A stretch of DNA of 26,018 nt, taken from IMG/VR virus record IMGVR_UViG_3300033067_000187, positions 1 through 26,018 of that record; one strand, written 5' to 3'. The notes below the pieces were generated by a model, which did no database searches, had not been told where the DNA came from, and worked only from the letters and a program-made list of their open reading frames with translations. This document shows positions 3,938-8,022 of this stretch, piece by piece (positions within the stretch are counted from its first letter, which is position 1; the number at the start of each line of letters is the position of its first letter). The position numbers and the translations under genes were made by a program. This DNA comes from a virus. Its lineage: Duplodnaviria > Caudoviricetes.

Positions 3938-4394
3938 TCGTAACCCTCGCTCTACTGAAGAGCGCACTGCATCAACTCGTGAGCGTCTTGCACGCGAGTA
4001 CACCCCGCCAAGCTTGCTGCCGACGCCTGATCCGCAAGATGGTTACAAGTTTCGCTGGGTAGCTGTTTCGGTTGTCGGTATTGACGACCCTGCAAACGTT
4101 TCGAAGAAGTCGCGGGAAGGCTGGGAACCTGTCAAGGCAGAGGATCATCCTGAACTGGCGCTTGCTCCGAACAAGAAGGGTCTTGTTGAAATCGGCGGTC
4201 TTGTACTTTGCAAGATGCCCGAAGAGATGGTGATGGCGCGGGATGCTTACTACGATCAGCAGACGCGAAACCAACTTCAAGCGGTGAACACGCAGTACAA
4301 ACAGTCGGAAGGTCCAAAGATGCCCATCCTCGTCGAGAACGAAGAGTCCTTGACTGAGTTTGGTAAGCAAAAATTCGGTAGCGGAACTAAGTAA
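3930..4394 (+). CDS. Conserved head-module hypothetical protein
   Basis: ATG at 3930 follows a GGAG RBS and overlaps the upstream gene end (preferred over the track's 3741). Motifs YKFRWV, REGWEPV, IGGLVLCKMP. Confidence 0.75.
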   Translation: MADRNPRSTEERTASTRERLAREYTPPSLLPTPDPQDGYKFRWVAVSVVGIDDPANVSKKSREGWEPVKAEDHPELALAPNKKGLVEIGGLVLCKMPEEMVMARDAYYDQQTRNQLQAVNTQYKQSEGPKMPILVENEESLTEFGKQKFGSGTK

Positions 4395-5015: not shown

Positions 5016-5927
5016 ATGGCAATCTCTCGTGCCCAAATGCTCAAGGAACTGCTTCCGGGCCTGAATGGTCTGTTCGGTCTTGAGTACTCGCGCTACGAGG
5101 CGCAACACACTGAGATTTACGAGACGGAATCTTCGAATCGTTCGTTCGAAGAAGAAACCAAGCTCGGCGGTTTCAGTGCGGCGCCTAACAAGACGGAAGG
5201 CTACGCAATCGCTTACGCGGAAGCGCAAGAAGCGTGGACTGCTCGCTACACCCACGAGACCATCGCGCTTGGTTTCGCCATCACCGAAGAGGCGATGGAA
5301 GACAACCTGTACGACACGGCTTCCCGGCGTTACACCAAGGCGCTTGCGCGGGCAATGTCGTACACCAAGCAAGTGAAGGCGGCTTCCGTTCTCAACAACG
5401 CTTTCTCTGGCTCGTTTGTCGGTGGCGACGGTGTTTCGCTGTGCAGCACTTCGCATCCGCTGCTCAACGGTGGCGTCAACTCCAACCGTCCTGCGGTTGG
5501 TGCGGACCTGAACGAAACCTCGCTGGAAGCTGCCATCATCCAGATGACGCAGTGGACGGATGAGAAGGGTCTGCTGATTGCTGCGCGCGGTCGTAAGCTG
5601 ATCATCCCGCCGCAACTGATGTTCGTTGCCAAGCGTCTGCTCGAAACTGAGAAGCGCGTGGGTACTTCGGACAACGACCTGAACGCGATCAAGTCGATGG
5701 GTGTTGTTCCCGGTGGTTACACCATCAACAACTTCCTCACCGACCCGAACGCGTGGTTCCTGATGACGGACGTTCCTAACGGGCTCAAGCACTTCACCCG
5801 TGTCGGGATGTCTACCAAGATGGAAGGTGACTTCGATACGGGCAACGTTCGTTACAAGGCGCGTGAGCGTTATTGTTTCGGCTACAGCGATCCGCTCGCT
5901 CTCTGGGGCTCGCCGGGTTCGTCGTAA
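5016..5927 (+). CDS. Major capsid protein
   Basis: AAGGAG RBS; MAISRAQMLKELLPGLN start, ARYTHETIALGFAITEEA.EDNLY, LIIPPQL, FLTDPNAWFL, DFDTGNVRYKARERY motifs. Strongly biased codons, followed by a terminator-like hairpin. Confidence 0.9.
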   Translation: MAISRAQMLKELLPGLNGLFGLEYSRYEAQHTEIYETESSNRSFEEETKLGGFSAAPNKTEGYAIAYAEAQEAWTARYTHETIALGFAITEEAMEDNLYDTASRRYTKALARAMSYTKQVKAASVLNNAFSGSFVGGDGVSLCSTSHPLLNGGVNSNRPAVGADLNETSLEAAIIQMTQWTDEKGLLIAARGRKLIIPPQLMFVAKRLLETEKRVGTSDNDLNAIKSMGVVPGGYTINNFLTDPNAWFLMTDVPNGLKHFTRVGMSTKMEGDFDTGNVRYKARERYCFGYSDPLALWGSPGSS

Positions 5928-5930
5928 TAC

Positions 5931-5955
5931 AGGGGGCTTCGGCCCCTTCTCCTTT
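5931..5955 (+). terminator. Intrinsic terminator-like hairpin with cUUCGg tetraloop and weak U tract
   Basis: AGGGGGC-TTCG-GCCCCTT forms a 7-bp stem (one G-U) and is followed by CTCCTTT, 3 nt after the capsid stop. The interrupted U tract suggests it is leaky. Confidence 0.7.
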
Positions 5956-5956
5956 A

Positions 5957-6022
5957 CCGGGCCTCACCGCCAGCGACAGTCCCGGCTGTTGCGCAAACGT
6001 TGGCGGCTTCAAGCGCAAGGAG
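5957..6022 (+). ncRNA. Candidate structured cis-regulatory RNA (pseudoknot/kissing-loop) in the 5' leader of the 6029 gene
   Basis: Three interleaved complementarities: CCGGG 5957-61/CCCGG 5981-85; CCGCCAGCG 5967-75/CGTTGGCGG 5998-6006; TTGCGC 5989-94/GCGCAA 6013-18. The last abuts the AGGAG RBS at 6018-22. Confidence 0.5.
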
Positions 6023-6028
6023 TAACAA

Positions 6029-6481
6029 ATGGCTTTCCAGACTTTTTCCGGCCCGATTCGTTGTGGCACCGCTAAAGAAGGTGCTGCGCGTAATACGGGC
6101 CTCGTCGTTTTGGCTCAGAGCGACACCGTTGCCGGTAGCGACACTACGAAGACCAGCAGCATCATCCTGCCTGCTTGGGCGCAAGCTGTTGAAGTGGATG
6201 TGGATGTCACGACTGGCTTCAACGGCACCACGCCAACTGTCTCTGTGGGCGTAGCTGGCGGTTCTGCTACGGCGATCATGGCAGCAGGCAACGTGGCTTC
6301 GGGCGGTCGAGTGGACACGCGGACGCTGCTCACGCTGGCTGGGCTTGTTGACGCTACCGGCGTTGAGCGCACCCTGACTTTCACGGTAGGCGGCACCGGC
6401 GTTACTACGGGCGCTGCTCGTGTGACGGTGCGCTACATCCAACGCGGCGACGGTGGCGTTTACGCTCCTGTCTCTGGCTAA
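6029..6481 (+). CDS. Hypothetical virion structural protein
   Basis: AGGAG RBS; MAFQTFSGPIR start; beta-rich, T/G/A/V-rich; ends TTGAARVTVRY. Confidence 0.7.
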   Translation: MAFQTFSGPIRCGTAKEGAARNTGLVVLAQSDTVAGSDTTKTSSIILPAWAQAVEVDVDVTTGFNGTTPTVSVGVAGGSATAIMAAGNVASGGRVDTRTLLTLAGLVDATGVERTLTFTVGGTGVTTGAARVTVRYIQRGDGGVYAPVSG

Positions 6482-6490
6482 GGGTGACTG

Positions 6491-6796
6491 ATGAAGCCCC
6501 GCTCTGTTTCTGTTACGGGCGTCGGCACGACCAACCCGCTATTGCTTAACCGCGATGGCGGGTCTTTCTCTGTCGGGTTTGTAGCGGAAGTTACTGGAAC
6601 CGTTACTTACACTGTTGAGCATACTTACGACGACATCATGGACTCCGCCGTTACTCCGGTGTGGTACACAAACGCGTCCGTGGGTTCTAGCTCGGCTACC
6701 AAGGAGGGGGCGTACACGACTCCTGTCGTTGCACTCCGTGTCAATGCTTCTGCTGGCACGGGTACTGTAAAACTAACCGTTGTGGAGGTTGTGTAA
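6491..6796 (+). CDS. Hypothetical virion structural protein
   Basis: Beta-rich 101 aa (VTGTVTYTVEHTYDD...PVVALRVN...GTVKLTV), in the operon direction. Confidence 0.7.
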   Translation: MKPRSVSVTGVGTTNPLLLNRDGGSFSVGFVAEVTGTVTYTVEHTYDDIMDSAVTPVWYTNASVGSSSATKEGAYTTPVVALRVNASAGTGTVKLTVVEVV

Positions 6797-6936
6797 TGGC
6801 TACTGGAAAAATGCCCCCGTTCATGAAGGGTAAGCCTGCGATGCCGCCTGCCAAAGGCAAGGCCGCAAAGTCAGGCAAGGCTGCGCCTGCTATGCCGTTC
6901 AAGAAGGGCGGCAAGGTAGGTAAGCGGGGCTGCTAA
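6796..6936 (+). CDS. Small basic Lys/Pro/Met-rich protein, 46 aa (not in the ORF track)
   Basis: MATGKMPPFMKGKPAMPPAKGKAAKSGKAAPAMPFKKGGKVGKRGC. TAATG overlaps at both ends, GGAGG RBS upstream, and it fills the gap exactly. Confidence 0.8.
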   Translation: MATGKMPPFMKGKPAMPPAKGKAAKSGKAAPAMPFKKGGKVGKRGC

Positions 6937-7616: not shown

Positions 7617-7861
7617 TGGGGCAGTTTGCGCGGGGGTCTCGGGCGCTTGGAATTTGCGACCGCTGCGGGTTTCAGTTCTTGCTCTCGTCTCTGCGAGGGG
7701 AGGTTGTAAAAGGTTCGCCAGTAGGCAACAAGGTTTGCCGTGATTGCTACGACCCTGATCATCCGCAGAACTTCATTGATCAAGTAAAGACCGACGACAA
7801 CAAGCCCTTGCGCGATCCGCGCCCAGATACGGGGCTTGAGGAATCGAGGAAGTTGTCATGA
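7616..7861 (+). CDS. Small zinc-finger-like protein
   Basis: CDRC...CRDC cysteine pairs, HPQ and PRPD motifs. The ATG overlaps the upstream TGA (alternative GTG at 7613). Confidence 0.75.
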   Translation: MGQFARGSRALGICDRCGFQFLLSSLRGEVVKGSPVGNKVCRDCYDPDHPQNFIDQVKTDDNKPLRDPRPDTGLEESRKLS

Positions 7862-8022
7862 AAATTCCGTCCCCAAAGAGCATGCTCAAGGCACCCGCGC
7901 TGCCTAAGCCCGCTTCTGTGATGAAGGCGCCCAAGCCGCTAAAGCCTGTAAAGGCGACTAAGCCCGCAAAGCTTGCGACTGTGAACAAGAACATCGGAAG
8001 CAACTGGTCGAAGATCAAATGA
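7858..8022 (+). CDS. Small basic Lys/Pro-rich protein, 54 aa (not in the ORF track)
   Basis: MKIPSPKSMLKAPALPKPASVMKAPKPLKPVKATKPAKLATVNKNIGSNWSKIK. ATGA overlaps at both ends. Confidence 0.75.
   Translation: MKIPSPKSMLKAPALPKPASVMKAPKPLKPVKATKPAKLATVNKNIGSNWSKIK

Follow-up and report, generated by a model that had tools for sequence, protein, structure and literature searches.

A covarying double-pseudoknot leader RNA precedes a predicted capsid cement gene in an HTVC023P-like podophage and appears to be a long form of the Mu-gpT-DE core

The 101-nt gap (positions 5928–6028) that separates a major capsid protein gene from the gene of a 150-aa protein raises the question of whether this DNA carries a functional RNA and, if so, on which gene it acts. 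The gap lies in a window of 26,018 nt, the whole stretch of viral DNA analysed here (IMG/VR record IMGVR_UViG_3300033067_000187), which is filled on the plus strand by the virion module of an HTVC023P-like podophage, with portal, GroES, capsid, adaptor-like, tail, and ejection genes. The capsid protein shares 63.5% identity with its counterpart in Pelagibacter phage HTVC023P. An initial annotation of the window had described the gap as the only sizeable one in 26 kb, and this was borne out, since two longer apparent gaps (6797–6935 and 7862–8018) hold ORFs of 46 and 54 aa. These two ORFs (6796–6936 and 7858–8022, plus strand) overlap the start and stop codons of their neighbours; their products are very rich in Lys, Pro, and Ala and may be basic core proteins that condense DNA. 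A glycosyl hydrolase 108 endolysin gene (1904–2413) and a GroES-like co-chaperonin gene (2595–2948) also lie within the head module, adjoining the portal gene, and GroES is likewise located in the head module of HTVC023P-type isolates.

For the gap itself, a UUCG hairpin with a weak U tract had been proposed, followed by three interleaved helices in the order A-B-A'-C-B'-C', with C' ending on the first base of the AGGAG ribosome-binding site (RBS). All of these were recovered from the sequence (Table 1). The hairpin at 5931–5948 is followed by CTCCTTTA, and position 6018, which is the last base of the element and lies 10 nt upstream of the ATG at 6029, is the first A of AGGAG. The topology, described as a kissing-hairpin or double pseudoknot, needed one amendment: two pseudoknots are present, but there is no loop–loop kiss, as the loops pair with single-stranded flanks around a three-way junction. 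Dinucleotide shuffling of 5957–6018 reproduced the order A-B-A'-C-B'-C' with helices of at least 5, 9, and 6 bp in 2 of 1,500 trials, and the plain folding energy of the element was unremarkable (z −0.93).

Table 1. Features of the junction between the capsid and predicted cement genes in the window
Feature	Position	Strand	Evidence
Major capsid protein gene, Mu gpT-like, HTVC023P type	5016..5927	+	PHROG 371, E 3e-21; PF10124 and PF25209 above cut-off
UUCG hairpin (5931–5948) and weak U tract, terminator-like	5931..5956	+	Sequence; only loop bases changed in the X7 relative
P1a, helix A 5' strand CCGGG, pseudoknot partner of the P3 loop	5957..5961	+	Exact 5-bp complement in 125/125 leaders
P2a, helix B 5' strand CCGCCAGCG	5967..5975	+	Several pair types at each of the first 9 pair positions, 125 leaders
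Junction A between P2 and P3	5976..5976	+	A in 123/125
P3, 3-bp helix CAG/CTG closing the loop T-CCCGG	5977..5988	+	Outer C-G and G-C invariant; middle pair variable
P1b, helix A' CCCGG, inside the P3 loop	5981..5985	+	Pairs with P1a
U5989, lone pair U5990–A5996, 5-nt loop GCGCA holding P4a, junction A5997	5989..5997	+	Alignment and parse of 125 leaders
Helix C 5' strand TTGCGC	5989..5994	+	Pairs with GCGCAA, 6013–6018
P2b, helix B' CGTTGGCGG	5998..6006	+	Pairs with P2a: 9 bp, one G-U
P4b, helix C' GCGCAA, 4–6 bp with 5989–5994	6013..6018	+	Family P4 length exceeds that of shuffled loops
Shine-Dalgarno (SD) AGGAG, 6 nt upstream of ATG 6029	6018..6022	+	Sequence
Gene of the 150-aa predicted jelly-roll capsid cement (decoration) protein, N-terminal TFSGP motif	6029..6481	+	Structure model, homology, position

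Besides run X1, possibly the source, contigs from runs of four further studies (X2, X5, X7, and X8) cover the element, indicating that it is not an assembly error. The X2 contig covers 5794–6199 with two differences, both outside the element; an X5 contig covers 5957–6222, and X8 covers 5905–6045 with no differences. A relative in X7 differs at 15 of 226 bases; of the 11 changes listed, those inside the gap leave every helix untouched, lying in the loop of the terminator, immediately upstream of P1, or in the linker from P2 to P4. A relative in run X5, read over P2a, P1b, and P3, differs at two positions of P2a and seems to lack one U; its P1b and P3 are unaltered.

To place the element in a family, 80 loci were retrieved by capsid similarity, most of which carry a related element. 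The DNA ahead of cement-type gene starts gave 159 distinct regions. The strict 3-bp/6-nt core was present in 132 of them; seven of these were removed for a weak P2, which left 125 leaders with six or more of eight P2 pairs. The 27 regions without the strict core mostly had a longer P3 or loop; the rest comprised short forms, a single deletion, three false starts, and four genes with no leader. The 125 leaders include loci fetched by pattern, which imposes part of the core; 86 were retrieved by protein alone. The common architecture of the long form is P1a - P2a - A - P3a - N - P1b - P3b - R - Y - loop with P4a - R - A - P2b - linker - P4b - SD, and P1, P2, P3, the lone pair, and P4 of the window were all parsed in this order.

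Checked across homologous leaders (125 parsed), all three helices of the initial annotation covary. P1 occurs in nine sequence combinations, each exactly complementary over 5 bp, and its type switches 21 times on the capsid tree (51 rows) with pairing always complete, a number that module exchange could inflate. The top three pairs of P2 covary on an alignment made from sequence only; variation in P2 was measured in the 125 leaders, which were preselected for at least six of eight P2 pairs. In P3, the C-G and G-C pairs are invariant and the middle pair varies (UA 34, AU 20, CG 5, GC 1, and unpaired 1; n = 61). When the seven core pairs were scored on the sequence-only alignment of 61 rows, 96.3% of the cells were paired, with 83 double changes; none of 500 shuffles scored as high, and slid controls were 12–51% paired. 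The mean length of P4 was 6.06 bp, compared with 3.99 ± 0.08 for shuffled loops. P4 ends 0–2 nt upstream of the SD in 73 of the 125 leaders, overlaps it in 38, and is 3–8 nt off in 13. In three long forms without a pre-SD partner (L056, L060, and L480), the loop pairs with AUGGC instead. Pairing of the long-form loop with its own AUG region (3.14 vs. 2.98 for swapped targets) is a small excess that was given no weight, and pairing of P1a with the coding region was rejected (10 of 125 vs. 8.6 shuffled). These comparisons support the element in the window as a conserved, covarying double-pseudoknot RNA, an uncatalogued long form.

Overlooked in the initial annotation was the core of this RNA, a three-way junction of P2, P3, and a lone pair (C-G or U-A). 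On the MAFFT alignment, the lone pair was C-G in 55 rows and U-A in 5, with none unpaired; the single U-G row was that of the window, which is misaligned there. In the 86 protein-selected leaders it was C-G in 73 and U-A in 8, and five were mis-registered parses that read C-G by eye. The U-A pair recurs with different P1 types and protein subfamilies, in a scan that demanded both bases. The single-nucleotide junction linkers are A in 123, A or G in 124, and A in 120 of the 125 leaders.

The window copy is a rare variant of the long form. Its U at 5989, where all others have A or G, and its 5-nt loop each occur in 1 of 125 leaders, and the copy may be weakened by this off-consensus junction base and loop length. 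Model R2, built without the window sequence on an alignment fitted to model R1, which did include it, had its best place in 26 kb at 5955–6030 (19.8 bits, E about 9e-4), with a runner-up of 9.7 bits. Scans of IMG/VR for the sub-type of the window (U after P3 and a 5-nt loop) found it in none of 103 loci and, in a second scan, in none of 119 of about 140; protein-led scans for it reached only relatives of 36–46% identity. A pattern made from the window's own helices was discarded as a family probe after finding no true copy in 80 loci. The capsid protein of the window sits on a long branch (0.51 vs. a median of 0.056; capsid tree, 51 rows), in line with an atypical RNA variant. The copy amounts to a natural minimal mutant, which shows junction bases that are open to change.

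The protein encoded directly downstream had no PHROG or Pfam match. Its structure model (mean pLDDT 67.6) had the Pam1 capsid chain 7eel_H as its best Foldseek match (E 1.6e-4), and comparison with the KHP40 cement protein 7dou gave a Z of 9.2 and an rmsd of 3.6 over 116 aligned residues. It is 37% identical to the CRP-901 protein, which is in turn 72% identical to the "cement protein" of DSL-LC04. The Z-scores are middling; with the support of position and annotation, the product is predicted to be a capsid cement protein. Across the family, the genes after the element fall into 14 protein clusters of 61–246 aa, with little in common beyond an N-terminal TFSGP-type motif (94 full-length proteins). 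The motif is conserved at the protein level; a nucleotide-level constraint on its codons was ruled out, as synonymous positions vary freely. The joining of a TFSGP arm to unrelated bodies suggests a capsid-docking arm with exchangeable display domains.

When other genes separate the capsid gene from the cement-type gene (e.g., L040, L047, L063, and L068), the element stays directly upstream of the latter. It thus travels with the cement-type gene, not with the capsid gene, indicating a 5' leader instead of the free small phage ncRNA that the initial annotation had offered as an option. Stop-codon readthrough or frameshifting was ruled out, since the spacing from the capsid stop codon is not constant and can include entire genes. 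In a genome collection, 18 of the 120 loci covered (about 240 estimated) had a P2 of at least 6 bp; 16 were true and all upstream of the same gene type, and the other two were without P1 and look like chance. The 16 true hits, on metagenome-assembled contigs, are taken to be mis-binned phage DNA. Four cement genes directly after an inserted gene (L215, L221, L232, and L263) have no leader within the available sequence, which counts against an essential role for the leader. At L009 2521–2596, the RNA is kept upstream of a different, 94-aa gene; in L007 and L043, both close relatives, the gene start is the same and the RNA has been lost. Genes that we take, from their N-termini, to resemble GIY-YIG or HNH homing endonucleases often lie between the capsid terminator and the cement gene. 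Such genes were seen in L215, L232 (914–1504), L015, L024, L040, L047, and L062, and the leader after them is kept in some and absent in others.

The initial annotation could assign the RNA to no named Rfam family. This held for the long form: on the window, Rfam gave no match to Mu-gpT-DE (RF03012) at the gathering threshold (49 bits) or at E 10, RF03012 matched 0 of 20 and 0 of 5 long-form loci, and scans of the window and long-form loci against Rfam 15 returned terminator-type or chance matches only, with no riboswitch or ribozyme class. Direct membership of the long form in Mu-gpT-DE thus failed on score, but its core and position are common to that family, which has 53 positions in Rfam and is typed "Gene; sRNA". 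Short elements at the same position do match RF03012 (CRP-901 72.3 bits, L074 41.1, and L077 25.3); three of six short copies found by pattern pass its cut-off and the other three fall below. Like the long form, Mu-gpT-DE stands upstream of homologous genes (short in CRP-901 and long in DSL-LC04, before the 72% identical proteins) and has the core helix-A-CWG..CWG-AC-loop-GA-helix. As in the window, it comes after a Mu gpT-like capsid gene (PF10124) and directly before the SD and AUG of the next gene. Typical long forms have all of the core helix-A-CAG..CUG-AC..GA-helix, whereas the window keeps A-CAG..CUG, with U-A as the lone pair, and has UU for AC and AA for GA.

The two forms differ in their scaffolds. 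P2 has 9–11 bp in the long form and 4 bp in Mu-gpT-DE, whose outer helix CCUG/CAGG overlaps the SD, whereas the 9-bp P2 of the window ends 11 nt before it. The fixed 6-nt P3 loop of the long form pairs with the 5' end, and the short form has no P1. P4 lies beside or over the SD in the long form but on the AUG in the short form. The long form is best read as a double-pseudoknot version of the orphan Mu-gpT-DE core.

The structure line of RF03012 in the cmscan output contains neither the lone pair nor a loop–AUG pairing, and the model stops at the AUG, so it cannot hold the whole loop–start helix. Herein, a short-form scan with both the loop and the start codon left unfixed yielded 120 loci, of which 116 were parsed and 110 were distinct. 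All 110 copies have 4–6 Watson-Crick pairs between the small loop and the start region, on average 5.04 compared with 4.14 ± 0.10 when targets were swapped (none of 1,000 swaps as high). Among 100 copies with the CCA/UGG anchor (ten anchorless ones excluded), the pair at base +5 was G-C in 69 (codon 2 Ala, GCCA) and C-G in 31 (Gly, CCCA), with no mismatch. On a rough tree built from 73 columns, codon 2 switches between Ala and Gly 14 times, and at least six of these switches are forced. L531, L537, and L189 are among the loci whose loop–start codon pairing covaries with codon 2. P2b of the short form (CAGG) is part of the SD. Loop–loop kissing in the short form was rejected (3.32 vs. 3.43 swapped). 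Considering the AUG pairing of the short form together with the SD-adjacent pairing of the long form, the same loop closes on the initiation region in both. An orphan Rfam motif filed as an sRNA gains a testable function, as the covariation of loop and start codon points to translational control in cis. Mu-gpT-DE is named among families with unannotated covarying pairs in a passage of 10.1101/2020.02.04.933952. Full-text literature searches found neither the long form nor the loop–AUG pairing described, and term searches of two 2026 preprints gave nothing relevant; the supplementary data of these preprints, of PMC5737381, and of PMC10690425 may hold the motif.

With about even confidence, we propose that the leader acts as a translation off-switch on the predicted cement gene and that the switch is set by a virion protein. 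That the closed fold represses initiation is, on its own, quite probable. The initial annotation had a two-state RNA set the ratio of capsid to downstream proteins through RBS access, processing, or protein binding. The last helix does touch the RBS, and RBS access is still the best reading; the two-state route by way of a 7-bp hairpin found no support. P2, P3, and P1 would form a preformed scaffold, closure of P4 would block 30S loading, and a ligand reading the junction would tip P4 shut. As the product bodies vary across the 14 clusters, a common ligand must be the TFSGP arm, the capsid protein, a host factor, or a small molecule. The likeliest would be surplus cement protein without a capsid site, acting via its N-terminal TFSGP arm, or the conserved capsid protein, and cement output would then track capsid supply. 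Regulating a capsid-decoration gene at the RNA level would be a little-known means of setting virion stoichiometry.

For this off-switch we count the covariation in every helix, the initiation-site pairing in both forms, and the link to one gene class, to which protein-bound leaders are typically restricted. Several points count against it. TFSGP is not basic and is not a typical RNA-binding peptide, and the folded product body provides no common ligand. The SD itself is largely unpaired in most long forms, the window included, where blocking would have to be steric. Some cement genes are leaderless, and the RNA of L009 precedes a different gene.

The E. coli rpsO/S15 leader is an autogenous pseudoknot operator. 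Self-regulation of T4 gene 32 through a 5' pseudoknot is described in a passage of PMC10690425. As in these two leaders, a pseudoknot in the 5' leader lies by the initiation site and is tied to one gene class, although there is no homology in sequence or structure. The products of T4 gene 32 and rpsO bind nucleic acid, whereas here the product is a predicted virion surface protein with a variable body.

A constitutive, ligand-free brake and 5' shield, in which the knot protects the 5' end of the transcript and fixes a low initiation rate, predicts the identical pairing pattern, and we regard it as a less probable alternative to the off-switch. ViennaRNA, unaided, already places the loop–AUG helix in the ligand-free MFE of two short forms. 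A −10-like hexamer lies 6–11 nt upstream of P1a in 99 of 124 leaders, with distances peaking at 7–10 (counted without a shuffle control), and 68 of these 99 have a TTG at −35 spacing; P1 would thus bury the 5' end. However, a hairpin would suffice for a brake, which accounts neither for junction A's that hardly vary nor for a lone pair that covaries. The short form does without P1, and the window keeps P1 though no promoter-like site was found upstream of it. Its terminator-like hairpin and U tract (5931–5956) are, to judge from the bases, likely a leaky terminator or pause site, and P1a begins 8 nt past the hairpin. Given the missing promoter-like site and the poor U tract, the window leader would depend on transcription that starts upstream, passes the capsid gene, and runs on across a weak terminator. 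Promoter-less leaders have weaker U tracts (4.1 vs. 6.3 U; 7 vs. 66 leaders), a hint only, as hairpin calling went wrong in two or more of the seven.

Several translational riboswitches combine a compact junction of fixed nucleotides with a pseudoknot onto the SD or AUG. The present element has the same make-up, and one core is kept in two different scaffolds before products that are diverse beyond the N-terminus; these points speak for a small-molecule or ion riboswitch that would set the degree of capsid decoration. Like guanidine-III, SAM-II/V, SAM-SAH, and preQ1-II/III, it is a compact pseudoknot ending on the SD or AUG; its likeness to guanidine-III (CCGG...CCGG...GAC...AGAC) we take to be a surface one. 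Unlike those classes, it gave no Rfam match at E 10, has a three-way junction with two pseudoknots, and precedes a virion protein gene rather than one for metabolism or transport. No riboswitch family was matched, none of the 120 genome-collection loci (about half of the collection, one sub-pattern) placed the element upstream of a cellular gene, few unpaired bases are invariant, and one junction base tolerates A, G, and U. A riboswitch is unlikely on these grounds. A broader idea, which we hold to be rather unlikely, is that the Mu-gpT-DE core is a switch that senses a ligand, whether as a riboswitch of a new class or by responding to free capsid protein. In two scaffolds closing on the start codon or SD, it would set capsid armour in lytic phages of the most abundant pelagiphage group.

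In the switch of the initial annotation, a 7-bp hairpin (5973–5992) would compete with helix C and free the RBS. The hairpin can form and is in the nested MFE; the nested folds are close in the window (−18.6 vs. −18.0 kcal/mol), 5973–5992 is transcribed first, and no listed X7 change falls within it. Conservation is limited to its inner 3 bp, P3, which can coexist with all three helices. The four extra pairs are all possible in just 1 of 125 leaders, that of the window, and the first of them is A-A or A-G in 122 of the 125. The extension is confined to the window, indicating that the hairpin switch is not conserved, and in the family fold P4 stacking contributes a further −9.2 to −12.2 kcal/mol before any loop costs. 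We consider this switch very unlikely; the 7-bp hairpin may be a local folding intermediate in the window. A self-cleaving ribozyme, or a trans-acting or packaged small RNA, would suit a compact double pseudoknot with its own promoter-like site in most relatives but is hardly credible, since no ribozyme family was matched, HDV-like and twister folds have a helix order different from that of the long form, no terminator follows the element, and the short form pairs with the start codon of its own gene, which ties the element to translation in cis.

The family occurs in many aquatic phages. Cultured carriers are HTVC023P and DSL-LC04, with one copy of the long form per genome, and CRP-901, with the short form; Pag-Yong1 matched neither RF03012 nor the long-form model. 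L188 (HTVC027P) has, at about 3965–4053, a divergent element that RF03012 and model R1 left undetected, with apparently the same helix order and a CCTAG/CTAGG pair overlapping the SD.
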